The translations under genes were made by a program, and so were the position numbers. DNA of 62,913 nt from Candidatus Terrybacteria bacterium RIFCSPHIGHO2_01_FULL_43_35 (GTDB taxonomy: Bacteria; Patescibacteriota; Minisyncoccia; Terrybacterales; GWB1-40-14): the NCBI GenBank assembly GCA_001822815.1, contig MHSR01000016.1, positions 1 through 62,913 on the forward strand. Direction: 5' to 3'. The notes under the pieces were generated by a model. It was not told where the DNA came from. It did no database searches and worked only from the letters and a program-made list of their open reading frames with translations. Of this stretch, positions 2,962 to 60,334 are shown piece by piece; within the stretch, counting starts at the first letter, position 1, and every line of letters starts with the position of its first letter.

Positions 2962-4035
2962 TTATAAATTTATTGCCTGCAGATCCTTTACTATTTCTTC
3001 AATATTTCCTTCCATGATGCTGGCAATATTATGCCAGCTTTTTTTTATACGGTGGTCGGTAACGCGGTCCTGCGGGAAATTATAGGTGCGTATTTTATCT
3101 GATCGGTCTCCGCCTCCGACTTGGGTTTTGTGTATTTCGCTTTTCGCTTTCGCTTCCTCCTCTTCTTTAAGGGCAAGTAGTTTTGAGCGCAAGATAGACA
3201 TAGCCGCTTCCTTATTAGATTGTTGGGTGCGTTCTTTCTGGGAGGTAATGATTATGCCGGTGGGTAAATGTATTAAACGCACGGCTGTTTCTCGTTTGTT
3301 TACGTTTTGTCCACCTGGTCCGGTTGCGCGCTGAACATCTATTCTTATATCTTGTGGTTTTATCTCCAAATCCGTTTCTTGCGCTTCGGGGATAACCATT
3401 ACAGTAACCGTAGAAGTGTGTAGGCGGCCGCTTTTTTCGGTTTCGGGTACGCGTTGAACGCGGTGCACGCCGGATTCCGTTTTTAGTTTTTTGTATGCAT
3501 CTCCCCCCCTTATTATAAAAATCGCTTCTTTTTGTCCGCCAATTGATGTGTTGTTATCTTCAACGAGCTGTGTTTTCCATCCCGATTTTTCAGCGAATTT
3601 GATATACATCCGCGTTATTTCTCCGGCAAACAATGCAGCTTCATCTCCCCCAGCCCCCGGCCTTATTTCCATGACAATCCCTTCTTTTTCTGTTGCGATC
3701 CTTGAGGTCTGTCCATTAACCAACGCGGCAATTTTTTTCTCTATAGTATTTTTTTCCTCCTGCGCCATGGCATTGAGTTCCGCATCCTTTTCTGTAGCTA
3801 TAAGGTTTTTGATATCTTCAAGTTCTTTTTTCAATCTTTCTTCTTCCTCTTTTATTTTTATAGTCTGTCCAAGTTGCTTGAGCCGCCGGCCAAGTTCAGC
3901 CAAATCTTTAGGACGAGAAAGAAGCTCAGGCCTTCGGCTCTGAGAACTTTCAGGCTCGATGAGATCGCTGAGCTTTGTTTCTAAATCGCCGTATTCCGAT
4001 TTTATTTCTTCAAGAGTGCGTTCGTCTTGACTCAT
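2962..4035 (-). CDS. prfA: peptide chain release factor 1
   Basis: GPGGQNVNK (GGQ), PET (RF1 PxT), [27 protein letters not shown]; carries an 11-aa insertion near the N-terminus. Confidence 0.95.
3931..3963. repeat. 33-bp in-frame repeat-derived insertion in prfA
   Basis: 3924-3965 matches intergenic 19009-19050 at 34/42 nt. It encodes [11 protein letters not shown] between SD and PELLS. Confidence 0.75.
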
Positions 4036-5569: not shown

Positions 5570-6328
5570 ATGGAAACCTCAAGCGATATAAAATCAGTTT
5601 TATCCCCAGAAGTTCAAGATATGCTTGAAGCTGGCGTGCATTTCGGGCATCGAAAATCCAACCGTCATCCCAAAATGGCGCCTTATATATTTACTGTTAA
5701 AGGCAGCGTGGAAATAATAGATGTCACCAAAACTCAGGAATTCTTGGATAAAGCCTGCGCATATTTAGAAAATAAAGCTAAAGAGGGCGGCTTGATACTT
5801 TTTGCTGGAACGCGTCCGCACGTTAAGGATATTGTGCAGGAGAGCGCCCAAGCCGTTGGTATGCCATACGTTAAAGAACGCTGGTTCGGCGGCACGCTTA
5901 CCAATTTTTCCGTAATGATAAAACGCCTTGAAAACTTTAAAGAACTTGAACGTAAGGCAGCAGCAGGCGAATTGGATAAGTACACCAAGCAGGAACAAGT
6001 GCATTTCAATAGACAAATAGTTAAGCTGAATTCGGCTCTAGGCGGGCTCAAAACCCTAACCCGCAAACCCGATGTGTTGGTTCTTGTTTCTTTAAAACAT
6101 GATACTATTGCCGCAACCGAAGCCCTGAAAATGAAGATTCCGGTGGTGGCTATTGCGGATACTAATGTTGATCCTACAAGTATAATGTTTCCTATTCCGG
6201 CAAATGACGATGCTATTTCTTCTGTAAGATACGTCTTTGCCAAATTGATCGATGCCATACAAAAAGGGAAGGCGGCATACGTGGCTAAAGTCGTCCATAC
6301 GGATAAGACCTCCGAAAGCAAGAGTTAA
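5570..6328 (+). CDS. rpsB: 30S ribosomal protein S2
   Basis: MLEAGVHFGH, HPKMAPYIF, RWFGGTLTNF, IPANDDAI; ATG at 5570 preferred over TTG 5537. Confidence 0.95.
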   Translation: METSSDIKSVLSPEVQDMLEAGVHFGHRKSNRHPKMAPYIFTVKGSVEIIDVTKTQEFLDKACAYLENKAKEGGLILFAGTRPHVKDIVQESAQAVGMPYVKERWFGGTLTNFSVMIKRLENFKELERKAAAGELDKYTKQEQVHFNRQIVKLNSALGGLKTLTRKPDVLVLVSLKHDTIAATEALKMKIPVVAIADTNVDPTSIMFPIPANDDAISSVRYVFAKLIDAIQKGKAAYVAKVVHTDKTSESKS

Positions 6329-18750: not shown

Positions 18751-18822
18751 GCCGATGTAGCTCAGTGGTAGAGCAACTCCATGGTAAGGAGTAGGTCGTC
18801 AGTTCAATCCTGACCATCGGCT
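18751..18822 (+). tRNA. tRNA-Thr(GGU)
   Basis: GCCGATG/CATCGGC, ACTCC-AT-GGT-AA-GGAGT, GTCAG-TTCAATC-CTGAC. Confidence 0.95.
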
Positions 18823-18877
18823 CAAATTTGCAAAGCAAATTTGCCCTGAATTGATTGAAGGGCTACATAAATTAAAA

Positions 18878-19066
18878 TAATCCCTCGTCGCTCCGCTCCT
18901 CGGGTCGTTCAGACTCTGAAGAGTCTTCAGACTCAAAGAGATGCAAGTTGTTGCAACCGCGAGCAGGCTCGCGAGCAAATTTAATAAATAAAGGTAATCC
19001 TTCGCTTTGCTCAGGTCTTCGACTCCGAAAAGTCTCAGACTCGAGGAGATGCAACGTGGTTGTATC
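18878..19066. repeat. two imperfect tandem copies of a composite palindromic element upstream of rpmG
   Basis: Unit 1 (18878-18958) and unit 2 (18995-19066) share TAATCC.TCG...GCTC..GG followed by TTC.GACTC.GAA.AGTC.TCAGACTC.A.GAGATGCAA. Confidence 0.75.
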
Positions 19067-19097
19067 CTCTCGCACGGCTCAAGGACAACCACGGCAT

Positions 19098-19256
19098 ATG
19101 CCTCAAGAAAATCTAATTAAAATGCAGTGTACGGTTTGTAAGCGTTTCAACTATTATACTTACAAGAACCGCAAAAAAGTTGAAAGAAAGCTTGAATACA
19201 AAAAGTTTTGTAAATCTTGCCGCAAACACACCAAACATAAAGAAGCTAAACGGTAG
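19098..19256 (+). CDS. rpmG: 50S ribosomal protein L33
   Basis: MPQENLIKMQCTVC...NYYTYKNRKK...LEYKKFCKSCRKHTKHKE; ATG at 19098. Confidence 0.95.
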   Translation: MPQENLIKMQCTVCKRFNYYTYKNRKKVERKLEYKKFCKSCRKHTKHKEAKR

Positions 19257-44058: not shown

Positions 44059-44221
44059 AAGAATTAAGCACAAGGCAAGAATAATAGAACCATTTTTAGT
44101 TGAGCGGCGTCACCCACGCCGTTTTTTCGTGTACTCTTCATCGAATCACCAAAAGAGTACCGATGGTTTACCAGTTTCCCATAAAAACTGACTTTTTCTT
44201 TTATTCTACATTTTTTATCTT

Positions 44222-44276
44222 GTCCAGCACCAGAGCCAGGCACTTCGACGGGCTCAGCGCTGGCACGGTGCTGGAC
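44222..44276. repeat. palindromic element with CTTCGAC..GCTCAG core
   Basis: GTCCAGCACC/GGTGCTGGAC and GCCAG/CTGGC stems around CT-TC-G...C-TC-AG. Confidence 0.7.
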
Positions 44277-44398: not shown

Positions 44399-47353
44399 AT
44401 GCCTGCCAACAAAAAAATTACAAAAAATGTTATTTCCATTCGCGGCGCCCGAGTGCATAACCTGAAGAATATAGACGTAGATATCCCGCGCAATAAACTT
44501 ACGGTCATAACCGGGCTTTCGGGTTCGGGCAAGTCGTCTTTGGCGTTTGATACGCTCTATGCTGATGGTCAAAGGCGTTATGTGGAGTCATTATCTGCTT
44601 ACGCACGGCAATTTTTAGGTGTCATGGAAAAGCCGGATGTAGATAATATTGAGGGTATTTCTCCGGCTATTTCCATAGATCAAAAAAGTGTTTCCAAAAA
44701 CCCGCGTTCAACAGTCGGCACGATAACTGAAATTTATGATTATTTGCGTCTTCTTTTTGCGCGCGTGGGTATCCCACATTGTCCAAAATGCGGTCGTGAA
44801 GTTAAGCGGCAAAGCGCCGCACAAATCATGAATCAAATTTTGGCTTTGCCCGCAAAAACGCCGATAGTCATTTTGGCTCCTGTTATCCGTGGCAAAAAAG
44901 GCGAGCACAAAAGCGTTATTGAAGAAATTGCCCGCGCGGGTTTTAGTCGCGTGCGAATTAATGGAGAAATATTACGCGTTGAAGATGCTCAAAATAAATC
45001 GTTAGCCAGGTATAAAATTCACGATATAGAAGTTGTGGTAGATAGATTTGAAGTTGGACGTTCCGCCGATGACCGCATGCGCTTGGCTTCTTCGGTTGAA
45101 ACAGCTCTTAAAATGGGCAACGGCATAATTATTGTGAATATCCAGCAGGATATTCATCCCGAGCGCAGGCGAGGGATTACACTTAATAACACAAAGGAAA
45201 AAACCGACATGATTTTTTCGGAGATGTTTGCCTGCGAGCATTGCGGGATAAATTTACCCGAGTTGGAACCGCGTACCTTTTCTTTCAACAGCCCACATGG
45301 CGCATGTCCAAAATGCACCGGTATTGGTTATCAGCTTGATGTTGATTCTGAGCTTGTTGTGCCCAACCCCAGACTTACTATTGCCGAAGGAGCTATACGC
45401 CCGTGGATGGCGGCATCGCACAGGTTAGGCAGGCAATCATGGTACTGGTGGATGCTTTCGGAATTCTCCGATAGAAAAGGTTTTTCCTTGAACGATCCGT
45501 GGTTAAAACTACCCAAGGGGATACAGCAAGAAATTTTATTTGGCGAAAAGCAAGAAGAAAAAAAAGAAGGTCTGCTTGCCCTTCGAAGTCTTGACGAAGA
45601 AGGGGCTAAATTTGAAGGCGTGGTACCAAATCTTCTGCGCCGTTATCAGGCCAGCGATTCTGACTGGACCAGAGCTGAGATAGAGAAATATATGGTTATT
45701 AAGGAGTGCTCGGTGTGTAAAGGTAAACGCCTACGCCTAGAGGCACTTGCGGTTACGGTTGGAGGAAGGTCAATTGATGTGGTGACAGCTTTGAGTATTA
45801 AAGATGCGCAGCGTTTTTTTGGCGATTTATCCTCAAGGCTTTCGAAAAATCATAAAATAATCGCGCGCATGATAGTAAAAGAAGTCATTAACCGTCTGCA
45901 ATTTTTGATTGATGTCGGCTTGGATTATCTAACTTTAGATCGTTCGGCACAAACTTTATCCGGCGGGGAGGGCCAGAGAATACGTTTGGCTACTCAAATA
46001 GGTACGCGTTTGACCGGTGTACTTTATATACTTGATGAGCCTTCGGTTGGTTTGCATCCACGCGATCAGGCTAGGCTTATTAAAACGCTTAAAGACTTGC
46101 GCGACTTAGGCAATACGGTCGTTGTGGTGGAACACGATCCGCAGACCATTCTTGCGGCCGATTGGGTTATAGATGTTGGTCCAGCGGCAGGTAAACACGG
46201 CGGAAGAATAGTTTTCACCGGAACGGCAAAAGAACTGCTTAAGGCTAAAACATTGACCGGAGAGTATCTCGCCGGCAAAAAACATGTCGGTAGAGCGGAA
46301 AGCAAGATAGTTGAACAAGCGATTTACCGTAATCCCTCGGCCAAAAAAGACAACGAAAACAAAAGCCTCATTATTTATGGCGCCAAGGAACATAATCTCA
46401 AGAATATTGACGTGAAGATTCCTATCGGAAAATTTGTCTGTTTAACCGGCGTTTCTGGTTCTGGAAAATCAACTCTTCTTAATGACATTTTAGCCCGCGC
46501 ATTGCTGAAACATTTCTGGAATGCAAAAGAAATGCCCGGCAAACATAGCCGCATCTTGGGCATAGAAAATATTGATAAGGCTATAGTTATTGATCAGTCG
46601 CCCATAGGCCGCACGCCTCGTTCAAATCCCGCGACATATACAGGTGCTTTTACCATCATCCGTACTCTTTTTGCCGCAACCAAAGAAGCCAAAGTAAGGG
46701 GCTATGGGCCAGGCAGGTTTTCTTTTAACGTTAAGGGCGGACGATGCGAGAATTGTCAGGGTGAAGGCATGCGTAAAATAGAGATGCAGTTTTTGGCTGA
46801 AGTTTGGGTTGAATGCGAAGAATGTCATGGCACGCGCTATAATAAAGATGCTTTAGAAATAACATGGCGGGGCAAAAATATAGCCCAAATATTAGAAATG
46901 ACCGTTGAAGAAGCCTTTAAATTCTTTGCCGGCATCCCCACCATTACCGCAAAACTGCGCACCTTAAACGATGTTGGCTTGGGCTATATAAACTTTGGCC
47001 AGTCGGCAACAACTTTATCTGGCGGGGAGGCACAACGCATAAAGTTATCTACTGAGCTGGCAAGACGCACTACCGGCAAAACTCTTTATATATTGGACGA
47101 GCCCACTACCGGCTTGCATTTCGCCGATATAGATAAATTACTGGGCATCCTGCGCGGTTTGGTAAATTTAGGCAATACAGTTTTGGTGATAGAACACAAT
47201 ATGGATGTCATCAAATGCGCCGATTGGGTTATTGACTTGGGACCTGAAGGTGGAGATCAAGGCGGCAGAATTATTGCCGAAGGCACGGTAAAAGAGATCG
47301 CCAAAAATAAGAATAGTTATACGGGACAATATCTCAAGAATTTGGAATTTTGA
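44399..47353 (+). CDS. uvrA: excinuclease ABC subunit A
   Basis: [12 protein letters not shown], Zn fingers, [31 protein letters not shown]; ATG at 44399. Confidence 0.97.
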
Positions 47354-50425: not shown

Positions 50426-50704
50426 ATGGAAAAAGATAATAAAAAACGTTTATTGGAATTTTACGGTACCGAATGCCCGCATTGCGTGACCATGAAACCG
50501 CTTATTGACCGTTTGGAACGCGAGCTTAATATAACTTTAGAGAAATATGAGGTGTGGCATAATGACGAGAACGCTAAATTGATGGAGCAGTACGACCGCG
50601 GTTTTTGCGGCGGCGTGCCGTTTTTCTACAATACGGCTACAAATAACTATATTTGCGGCTCAGTGCCCTACGAACACTTTAAAGCTTGGGCGATGGAAGA
50701 GTAA
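50426..50704 (+). CDS. thioredoxin/glutaredoxin-like protein
   Basis: FYGTECPHC, GVPFF..., ICGS. Confidence 0.85.
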   Translation: MEKDNKKRLLEFYGTECPHCVTMKPLIDRLERELNITLEKYEVWHNDENAKLMEQYDRGFCGGVPFFYNTATNNYICGSVPYEHFKAWAMEE

Positions 50705-50806
50705 GTCGGCAGGCTTACTCGCGGCTTGCTGGAGTCCTCTTTATATTAATGCCGTTCATGGCAATATAGTCCTTCTCCAGAGGCCGCTCGCAAGCCAGCC
50801 GACTTA
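50702..50806. other. ~105-nt rod-like imperfect hairpin
   Basis: TAAGTCGGC/GCCGACTTA, GGCTT/AAGCC, GCGGC/GCCGC, CTGGAG/CTCCAG, TATATT/AATATA. Confidence 0.75.
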
Positions 50807-56016: not shown

Positions 56017-56114
56017 TTTGGGCGGCAACTCCGTTCGCGAAGCATCGCCTCGTCTCGCACGAGACTCGGCGCTCCCACCCACCCTCCATTTCGCTCACGG
56101 AATCGCCGCCCAAA
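56017..56114. repeat. branched palindromic element between atpE and atpF
   Basis: TTTGGGCGGC/GCCGCCCAAA; CCGT-TC-GCGAA/TTCGC-TC-ACGG; CGCC-TC-GTCTCG/CGAGAC-TC-GGCG. Confidence 0.8.
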
Positions 56115-59330: not shown

Positions 59331-59401
59331 TTTTATTAAGATAATCCCTCGCTGCGCTTGGTATGCACATCGTTGCAATCTCGCAGTGGCGAGAAGCAAC
59401 G

Positions 59402-60334
59402 ATGGCACAAAACACTCGCGAATTAAGAAGAAGGATCAAAGCGACTAAATCCATTCGGCAGATAACCAAAGCCATGGAGATGATTGCCGCAAGCAAGATG
59501 CGCAAGGCGCAACTGGCCGCTTTGGCATCTCGACCGTATGCGGATTTGGCTTGGGAAATACTTTCTTCGCTTTATGGCAAGGATAAAAGTTTATCTGAAG
59601 AACAGGTCGGTTCGTATATTAAATTTTTGGGTTCCTATACAGAAAATGAAAACCAAACAAAACAGCTTATTATTTTGATAACCTCAAATAGGGGATTGTG
59701 CGGCTCCCTTAATTCGCAATTAGTGAACGAGGCTTTAAATTTAGCTAAGAGCGATAAGAATAATTATTCTTTTGTTGCCGTTGGTCGTAAAGGCTTGCGC
59801 TCCTTATTGCGTCAAGGATTTAATGTTCTGGCTTCTTTTGACAGTTTTGAAAATCAGCCAGATTTTAATGCGATACGGCCCATAGCTAAAATAGTTATGG
59901 ATAAATTTTTGGCCAGTGAAGTTTCACGCGTTATCGTTGTTTATGCCGATTTCATATCAACGCTTCAATACAAAATACGTTCAAAACAACTTTTACCGCT
60001 GACGCCATATAATGTTGTATTAAGCGGCGGAGTTAAACTTGATATAAATACCAAAGACAGTGAGAGAAACAATAAAACGGAAATTTTGTTTGAGCCTTCG
60101 CCCGAAGAGATTTTGAGTTCTCTTTTACCGCGCTTGATAGAACTGCAGGTTTATCAATCAATAGTTGAAAATCTGGCATCAGAGCACTCGGCGCGCATGG
60201 TGAACATGAAAAACGCTTCTGATTCAGCGCGCGACATCATTAATGATCTTACCCTTACTTATAATTCATTGCGCCAGGCTTCAATTACCGCCGATTTGGC
60301 GGATATAATTGGCGGCAGGATGGCAGTGAAATAA
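59402..60334 (+). CDS. atpG: ATP synthase F1 subunit gamma
   Basis: RRIKATKSIRQITKAMEMIAASK, NRGLCG, ASEHSARM..MKNA, RQASIT; ATG at 59402. Confidence 0.96.
   Translation: MAQNTRELRRRIKATKSIRQITKAMEMIAASKMRKAQLAALASRPYADLAWEILSSLYGKDKSLSEEQVGSYIKFLGSYTENENQTKQLIILITSNRGLCGSLNSQLVNEALNLAKSDKNNYSFVAVGRKGLRSLLRQGFNVLASFDSFENQPDFNAIRPIAKIVMDKFLASEVSRVIVVYADFISTLQYKIRSKQLLPLTPYNVVLSGGVKLDINTKDSERNNKTEILFEPSPEEILSSLLPRLIELQVYQSIVENLASEHSARMVNMKNASDSARDIINDLTLTYNSLRQASITADLADIIGGRMAVK

Follow-up and report, generated by a model that had tools for sequence, protein, structure and literature searches.

The described systems closest to the repeats reported here are GTAG-tagged repetitive extragenic palindromes (REPs). 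In the REPs of E. coli a 2x2 AA/GC mismatch is conserved at mid-stem, and the cleavage activity of TnpA_REP is lost when pairing is restored at this place (PMC8266576). Recognition by TnpA_REP is strand-specific and takes place on folded single-stranded DNA (PMC8266576). The GTAG-24 units of P. aeruginosa have an unpaired GA, and REP families include intragenic copies in repair genes (PMC3733652). In the present study we have analysed a stretch of 62,913 nucleotides (the window), which is contig C16 of the 827-kb genome (25 contigs; completeness 98%) of Candidatus Terrybacteria bacterium RIFCSPHIGHO2_01_FULL_43_35, hereafter G000, whose small-genome features are canonical. Positions 18877-19097 of the window, between tRNA-Thr(GGU) and rpmG, contain two tandem copies of a hairpin cassette, the stems of which are interrupted by TC opposite TC (TC/TC).

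The cassette is built in the order of an A/T-rich stretch with a GTAAT or GTAGT tag, the hairpin H1, an optional module F2 (one or more), GATGCA, and the stem P2 which encloses the hairpin H3. H1 has the consensus YCC-N-TCGC-N3-4-GCTC-N'-GGR, its unit being 17-23 nt long plus the tag. F2 is an optional middle module of 33-39 nt (GGTCTTCGACTC...GAGTCTCAGACTCGARGAG), and P2 is a 9-12-bp stem around H3 (CCNC-TC-GC-loop-GC-TC-GNGG) that ends in GGCAY, with the ATG of the downstream gene immediately after it. A covariance model of the cassette (R1), built from 11 copies, gives 37 matches in G000, and stand-alone H1-like units exist besides.

The likeness to REPs includes short tagged palindromes in tens of copies, a 2x2 mismatch in mid-stem, and in-frame intragenic copies, among them copies in repair genes. 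The H1 unit by itself is a short (20-40 bp), multi-copy palindromic unit. However, the mismatch here is TC/TC, no gene for a REP-associated tyrosine transposase (RAYT) is present in the genome or in its congener, and the tag is mostly GTAA (16 of 24 in G000, where GTAG accounts for 4; 25 and 9 of 65, respectively, in relatives). Moreover, the units are arranged in directional cassettes ending at start codons, whereas REPs are located downstream of genes or in dimers known as bacterial interspersed mosaic elements (BIMEs) or REPINs. The first-pass annotation of the window had proposed a dispersed REP-like hairpin system with a conserved mismatch, and this description is supported. It had also drawn on the recognition of REP-type hairpins with conserved mismatches by HUH enzymes, for which the dependence of TnpA_REP on the E. 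coli mismatch is a precedent (PMC8266576).

Two other systems share parts of this design. Rickettsia palindromic elements and in-frame miniature inverted-repeat transposable elements resemble the present repeats in that in-frame hairpins are tolerated in essential genes (here uvrA, RF1 and an open reading frame (ORF) of contig C22), but they belong to another sequence family, and the feature here is a conserved mismatch. The pneumococcal BOX element (boxA, n x boxB, boxC) is modular, with a variable number of middle modules, is folded and lies beside genes. The cassette has the same modular build, folding and gene-adjacent location, but it is unrelated to BOX in sequence, and BOX has neither a fixed position relative to start codons nor a conserved tandem mismatch. 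Our literature search found no description of REPs or such elements in bacteria of the candidate phyla radiation (CPR).

Enrichment and conservation of the TC/TC mismatch

All gapless palindromes of the genome were collected, and each 2x2 mismatch was tallied by type against dinucleotide-preserving shuffles. Across the whole genome, TC/TC with 4+4 flanking pairs was observed 20 times against 3.1±1.1 in the shuffles. With 5+4 flanking pairs the counts are 14 observed and 0.7 expected, and with 5+5 flanking pairs 3 and 0, and TC/TC is the most over-represented among the 144 non-Watson-Crick 2x2 types. A scan restricted to small hairpins (3-8 nt in the loop, 2-5 bp in the inner stem) gave the top z-score to GA/GA, which is TC/TC read from the opposite strand (40 against 18.6±4.0), with 29 more hairpins carrying TC/TC. 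A fixed template (three outer pairs, XY, GC, N3-4, GC, X'Y', three outer pairs) assigned 27 of 183 matches to TC/TC, above every fully paired type, the runner-up being CC/GG with 11. The first-pass annotation would have been refuted by TC/TC loops being no commoner than other 2x2 mismatches; the shuffle-controlled scan of the genome shows that they are commoner.

The same scans were applied to 400 kb of a control genome of the same class and another family (G021), where TC/TC accounts for 1 of 105 matches to the fixed template and is not enriched in the general scan. The signal is therefore not created by the scan method. TC/TC is also not enriched in genome G003 in the strict 4+4 test, and together the two null results tie the signal to these repeat families and not to a class-wide property. 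When the cassette loci of G000 were masked, TC/TC plus GA/GA was still the top class at 5+4 flanking pairs (17 against about 1.4 expected). The matches left after masking are free F2 copies and long palindromes (position 56021 of the window, C8:80263, C13:44125 and C13:66266), and the few isolated matches outside the families are near chance level (about 6 at 4+4 flanks). The TC/TC observation is real and statistically strong, and it concerns a few modular repeat families. Most copies have a common sequence core, contrary to the earlier proposal of a structural rather than a sequence consensus.

Beyond G000, matches to the covariance model are present in 17 of the 61 related genomes surveyed: 20 in the congener G001, 9 and 19 in two genomes that belong to the same order, with others scattered elsewhere in the class. 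No Rfam family matches at gathering score, and Rfam matches up to E=10 look like chance. For the analysis of conservation, 60 loci were fetched from 12 other genomes, giving 65 copies aligned to the model. TC/TC is retained in 43 of the 65 copies in H1 and in 45 in H3. The main alternatives are the paired combination GA/TC (6 copies in H1, 2 in H3) and TC/TT (1 in H1, 4 in H3). Around the unchanged TC/TC of H3 more than 20 different Watson-Crick outer stems are found. All 22 modelled stem pairs have changed on both sides, while 97.3% of the stem cells are paired, compared with 72.7% in shuffles and 40-49% in slid controls. The mean consensus frequency is 0.80 for the four mismatch columns against 0.72 for the stem columns, in an alignment whose underlying model already has TC there, a mild ascertainment bias, and whose copies are related by descent.

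The paired GA/TC variants are two adjacent transversions away from TC/TC and hardly any intermediates are seen, which suggests templated correction of a quasi-palindrome and not point mutation. H1 is more alike within a genome than across genomes, a pattern that points to recent amplification or conversion.

Predicted strand asymmetry and probable turnover of the modules

The core of the mismatch reads CTCG opposite CTCG, and its general context, 5'-Y-TC-G...C-TC-R-3', is found in every family. H1, H3, F2 and the long palindromes all have G-C as the inner pair and, on the TC strand, C or T as the outer 5' neighbour, the exceptions being four H3 copies with CCAA. The complement of this context therefore reads C-GA-R opposite Y-GA-G. 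In DNA hairpins a pyrimidine-GA-purine context gives the pair order C:G, sheared G:A, sheared A:G, G:C, which has been called the CGAG block (PMC10085684). The first-pass annotation had described the complementary strand as forming tandem sheared G:A pairs, and the pyrimidine-GA-purine sequence of both arms is consistent with that description (PMC10085684). A further likeness, to the d(GCGAAGC) mini-hairpin, lies in the H1 loops, which on this strand are often GAA or GNA closed by C-G. The match to the block is at the level of sequence, and it lies within genomic repeats and not within a simple CGAG repeat.

In the Turner model, GA/GA is tied as the most stable 2x2 loop in this context, whereas UC/UC is 82nd of 100, a gap of 2.1 kcal/mol per loop, and nearest-neighbour calculation makes the GA strand the more stable one for each hairpin tested. 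About half of the H1 loops are CTTCG, which is CGAAG on the GA strand, and others (CTGCG, CTCCG, CTACG) give GNA triloops there. Mini-hairpins of the d(GCGAAGC) type are exceptionally stable. Loop polarity as an indicator of strand works for H1 (TNC loops) but fails for H3.

Several comparisons lean towards modularity and turnover at the level of DNA. In contigs of the metagenome runs X1, X3 and X7 the end of the tRNA-Thr gene (18823) is joined to 19097 through 18 other letters (TTAAATAAATTTCAAGAC). This joint is suggestive of a relative that lacks both cassettes, the aligned sides being just 30-37 nt long; no target-site duplication was definable. Other metagenome contigs carry paralogous copies which lack exactly F2, skipping 38-39 nt (18901-18939 in the first copy and 19016-19053 in the second). 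The leaders of the orthologous rpmF genes in G000 (C14:12848-12921) and G001 (locus L046) differ in three compensated P2 pairs and keep TC/TC in both, while the first 28 coding bases differ once. Because the P2 stem of the G001 leader is that of another G001 cassette (L037), turnover by conversion or replacement among copies is suggested.

The F2 modules of the interval (18890-18937 and 19010-19057) have a summed contig depth 50-100x that of the unique flanks in three groundwater/soil metagenomes, which makes F2-like sequence very abundant in the community.

We tentatively favour, with confidence somewhat short of even, the reading that TC/TC is a DNA-level feature of modular repeats, serving REP-like recognition or strand asymmetry. 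Its enrichment, its conservation amid covarying stems and its CGAG-block context are counted in favour of this reading, as are the cassette-free joint, the copies without F2 and the rpmF leaders. The TC/TC loops would be the conserved core of hairpin DNA modules that spread and turn over in this genome and its order, namely H1 (REP-like, with a GTAA/GTAG tag), H3 (related to it and nested in P2), F2 (separate) and a few long palindromes. The mismatch would make the two strands unequal. The GA strand is predicted to fold into a stable single-stranded DNA hairpin, in H1 often capped by a GAA or GNA triloop, and the TC strand, which is the mRNA sense in leader cassettes, would fold about 2 kcal/mol weaker per loop. 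By analogy with the AA/GC mismatch read by TnpA_REP, this asymmetry, or the open pyrimidine loop, may be a strand-discriminating mark for a putative enzyme that copies or maintains the modules. As a side benefit, the leader mRNAs might remain meltable.

The two cassettes before rpmG and other sites in the window

The intergenic block that bears the cassettes is bounded upstream by tRNA-Thr(GGU) (18751-18823, + strand; ARAGORN and Rfam) and downstream by rpmG (ribosomal protein L33; 19098-19256, + strand; identified by sequence and ORF), the ATG of which follows the second cassette immediately; the hairpins of the interval make up the leader of this gene, a position that the first-pass annotation had not noted. 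The longest-ORF rule places rpmG at 18948-19256, that is, 150 nt too far 5' through copy b (TTG at 18948), the real start being the ATG at 19098. The 5' ends of other cassette-led genes are similarly over-extended by this rule.

Copy a (18877-18979, + strand) is a truncated cassette, the 3' arm of its P2 having been lost by decay, and it is a weak match to the covariance model (18876-18988). Its tag (18877-18881) is ATAAT instead of the family consensus and shares positions with a -10-like hexamer, TAAAAT, whose last base is 18878. H1 (18882-18904) has two TC/TC loops (18885-86/18900-01 and 18888-89/18897-98) and is of a long type, CCC-TC-G-TC-GC-(TCC)-GC-TC-C-TC-GGG, that recurs at C13:117060, C8:33934 and C13:53697. 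In F2 (18905-18939), TC at 18909-10 and TC at 18927-28 stand on either side of a perfect hairpin, AGACTCT/AGAGTCT (18911-18926). The remaining part (18940-18979) consists of GATGCA, the 5' arm of P2 (GTTGTTGC) and H3, which is here the fully paired variant CGCGAGC-AG-GCTCGCG with GA opposite TC.

Copy b (18993-19097, + strand) is complete and finishes at the rpmG start (R1 match 18993-19100, 56 bits). The tag GGTAAT (18993-18998) is followed by H1 (18999-19015), CCT-TC-GC-(TTT)-GC-TC-AGG, with TC at 19002-03 and 19011-12. F2 (19016-19049) reads GTCT-TC-GACT-(CCGAAA)-AGTC-TC-AGAC and then TCGAGGAG, with TC/TC at 19019-20/19035-36. In the last part (19050-19097), P2 pairs TGC.ACGTGGTTGT with ACAACCACG.GCA around H3, CCTC-TC-GC-(ACG)-GC-TC-AAGG, the TC/TC of which is at 19070-71/19079-80. 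On folding, P2 and H3 together form a helix of about 20 bp, broken by internal loops. For either strand, the fold of the entire interval is better than that of shuffles (z -4.0 to -5.2), which does not discriminate between models.

Alternative foldings were also noted. In F2 (19016-19049, and in G000 C21:1602-1640 and C21:4141-4180) the 5' TCTTCGA can pair with the 3' TCGARGA around a TCTGAG/CTCAGA hairpin, whereby the left 'mismatched' TC becomes paired. When the interval is folded as a whole, the minimum-energy structure pairs the 3' arm of H1 in copy a (CTCCTCGGGTC, 18896-18906) with GACTCGAGGAG of copy b (19039-19049), a long-range contact that may be coincidental.

The first-pass annotation had listed seven TC/TC sites in the window as otherwise unrelated hairpins. 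Five of the seven hold a TC-opposite-TC 2x2 loop as described, whereas the site at 59346-59361 is degenerate and that at 44243-44257 is weak. The hairpins at 18882, 18999, 59344 and 45156 share a sequence consensus and are homologous modules belonging to a single repeat family, so that the term unrelated fits only a minority, the long palindromes at 44215, 50695 and 56015, for which blastn-short found no sequence relatives in the genome.

The atpG cassette (59340-59411, + strand; model match of 67.5 bits) includes the degenerate H1 with TC/TT (59346-59361) and a fully paired H3, TCTCGC/GCGAGA, and the start codon of the gene is inside the 3' arm of P2. An H1-like unit lies in frame in uvrA (45131-45181, - strand; model match with E 0.009) and reads GTAATCCC-TC-GC-CTGC-GC-TC-GGGAT. 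It appears as GA/GA on the + strand (45156-45177), the uvrA mRNA bears the GA strand, and the unit coincides with a segment of 18 extra amino acids relative to the G003 ortholog.

The long palindromes are all described on the + strand. One lies 3' of a thioredoxin-like gene (50703-50805), is unique and has TC/TC at 50719-20/50788-89. Another is located between atpE and atpF (56021-56112), with TC/TC at 56035-36/56095-96 and 56050-51/56066-67, and its architecture matches that of the palindromes at C8:80263, C13:44125 and C13:66266. In the third, between a uvrC-like gene and uvrA (44222-44276), the TC/TC claimed at the tip (44243-44257) is weak, the minimum-energy fold pairing the tip otherwise.

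Alternative explanations and implications

The main rival reading, a serious one that we hold to be somewhat unlikely, places the function in RNA. The UC/UC loops would act in the mRNA 5' leader, where they could adjust the stability of the hairpins to let the ribosome open the structure beside the start codon, or be a target for binding or cleavage by a protein, for example an initiation helper or an enzyme of the RNase III type. Some 30 copies end 0-5 nt 5' of the start codons of housekeeping genes, with the TC strand always sense, and the genes led in this way include rpmG, atpG, groEL, rplU, greA, rpmF, rplT, rpsL, rpmA, aspS, glmS, recR and htrA. This placement speaks for an RNA-level role, as do the very strong covariation of the stems, the long helix of P2 and H3, and the lack of any visible canonical Shine-Dalgarno sequence from H1 to the ATG, though the tail of the 16S rRNA is canonical. 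The intergenic long palindromes, too, are mostly TC-sense (about 9-10 against 4), although orientation counts of intergenic and in-gene copies are approximate because ORF-based gene calls over-extend 5' ends.

The pairing statistics point the other way. As a rule, G.U is much better tolerated than A.C in functional RNAs. Among 1382 stem cells, 1317 are Watson-Crick (95%), 27 are G.T and 21 are A.C, and this near equality is more in keeping with a DNA palindrome than with a functional RNA. The same counts were tried as a means of picking the functional strand, but they are symmetric and give no decision. Units in reverse orientation, with the GA strand as sense, lie inside coding regions, namely H1 units in uvrA and in the C22 ORF and F2 in RF1 (3924-3965), and some intergenic sites are reversed as well; these, too, count against an RNA-level role. 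In the C22 ORF (C22:5417-5515) four exact tandem 27-nt repeats run in frame, each containing the hairpin TCC-TTCGC-ATTC-GCTC-AGGA. Weak evidence comes from the promoter region. A promoter-like TTGATT-16-TAAAAT ends at 18878, and in most copies a TAANGT hexamer overlaps the tag. If this -10-like hexamer is used, the transcription start would lie inside H1, although no conserved -35 box was found upstream of H1 across copies. The lack of an Rfam match also counts against an RNA-level function.

It is also possible, but quite unlikely, that the mismatch is an inherited quirk, present in founder copies and persisting without function through shared ancestry and copy-and-paste amplification. Most TC/TC hairpins do belong to few families, H1 is more uniform within than between genomes, the isolated matches fall to near chance once the families are removed, and G003 is unenriched in the strict test, all of which speak for this view. 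However, the mismatch columns are conserved more than the neighbouring covarying stem columns. One Y-TC-G/C-TC-R context is shared by more than 20 stems and at least five distinct modules, and repaired variants do appear yet stay in the minority.

Binding of a protein to the duplex appears very improbable. On this account a CTCG-N7-8-CTCG direct repeat at the promoter or leader would be bound as double-stranded DNA, and complementarity would be secondary. The 3' arm (GCTCGNGGRCAAC) is nearly invariant while the 5' arm alternates between CTCG and CGAG, and H1 adjoins the -10-like hexamer, both of which agree with such a site. But the outer stems covary freely, which duplex binding does not require, and the motif also occurs in F2 and the long palindromes, modules whose sequence and spacing are quite unlike.

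The mobilising enzyme envisaged by the first-pass annotation was an HUH (RAYT/IS200-like) transposase or a GIY-YIG enzyme. A six-frame search of G000 gave no match to Y1_Tnp (PF01797), a domain for which control genomes do register matches, and none was found in G001, which with its 20 cassettes is, together with G000, one of the two richest carriers. Across the 61 genomes the count of Y1 domains does not follow the count of cassettes (rho -0.04). Classical REPs mobilised by a resident HUH transposase are thus close to refuted for this genome, even though the GTAG-like tag, short palindrome and 2x2 mismatch resemble group 2 REPs and Y1_Tnp-like genes occur among the relatives, since the enzyme is absent from both carriers, its counts are uncorrelated and the tag is mostly GTAA. 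With Y1_Tnp absent from the genome, the repeats likewise do not fit palindrome-associated transposable elements (PATEs) derived from IS200/IS605, the subterminal hairpins of which are processed by a Y1 TnpA acting in trans. The Y1_Tnp-like ORFs, one to eight of which are present in 33 of the 61 relatives, are about 215-260 amino acids long, and their match to the Pfam model is confined to its C-terminal two thirds.

GIY-YIG enzymes are a weak lead. Across the 61 genomes the GIY-YIG domain count correlates weakly with the cassette count (rho 0.43, p 5e-4, uncorrected for phylogeny or genome size), carriers having 5.6 on average and non-carriers 3.0. The small GIY-YIG proteins of this genus are 84-105 amino acids long. 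But the four small GIY-YIG genes of G000 are not flanked by TC/TC hairpins; they lie in or beside repeats of their own that lack TC/TC loops, one of them inside a split tRNA (C1:44018). Only one of them (C22:5945; 5918-6202) is near a TC/TC array; it lies about 400 nt downstream of the TC/TC array in C22 and is bracketed by a 14-nt inverted repeat (CCCGTTAGAGACAG / CTGTCTCTAACGGG). At C8:2790-3095 of G000 a GIY-YIG gene of 95 amino acids is enclosed by an inverted repeat of 24 nt in which one position is mismatched (TTACCCAGCCCCAGTTTTGTATCT / AGATACAAAACTGGAGCTGGGTAA), and it looks like the loop of a hairpin element.

The DNA-level, REP-like reading of TC/TC has weaknesses of its own, and the following points weigh against it. 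No enzyme was found for it, there being no Y1 HUH gene and no small GIY-YIG gene flanked by TC/TC hairpins. DNA parameters give a small asymmetry between the strands, in most hairpins 0.3-0.8 kcal/mol, with a maximum of 1.2. The loops of H3 are without consistent strand polarity, and G001 carries GCGAAGC on the TC strand. The template strand of the leaders is the GA strand; in replication-co-oriented genes it is also the leading-strand template, the strand that is least exposed as single-stranded DNA. By analogy with REPs the tagged strand would be the active one, and this is the TC strand here. The fitting of the alignment to a model with TC gives the apparent conservation a mild bias, and the persistence of fully paired GA/TC variants (6 and 2 of 65) means that the mismatch is not essential for persistence.

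A bolder proposal, which we consider decidedly unlikely, is that CTCG/CTCG is the signature of an undescribed hairpin-recognising system of CPR bacteria. A purine-zipper hairpin, made of sheared G:A pairs and a GNA triloop, would be read by a non-HUH enzyme, possibly a small stand-alone GIY-YIG nuclease, and this enzyme would place copies of the modules at gene starts. Alternatively, a hairpin of the template strand at the transcription start might be a supercoil-dependent promoter or leader switch of highly expressed genes.

What this study adds is the signature of the mismatch, together with the evidence for its conservation and the rule for its context. For annotation, the cassettes replace the usual ribosome-binding region before ribosomal-protein, chaperone and ATP-synthase genes and cause miscalls of start codons, as for rpmG extended back to 18948. 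If the mismatch is indeed a mark for recognition or strand choice, Y-TC-G...C-TC-R would be a searchable signature for uncatalogued repeat modules that shape the gene starts of ultra-small bacteria, and it would point to a class of enzymes handling folded DNA other than RAYT.

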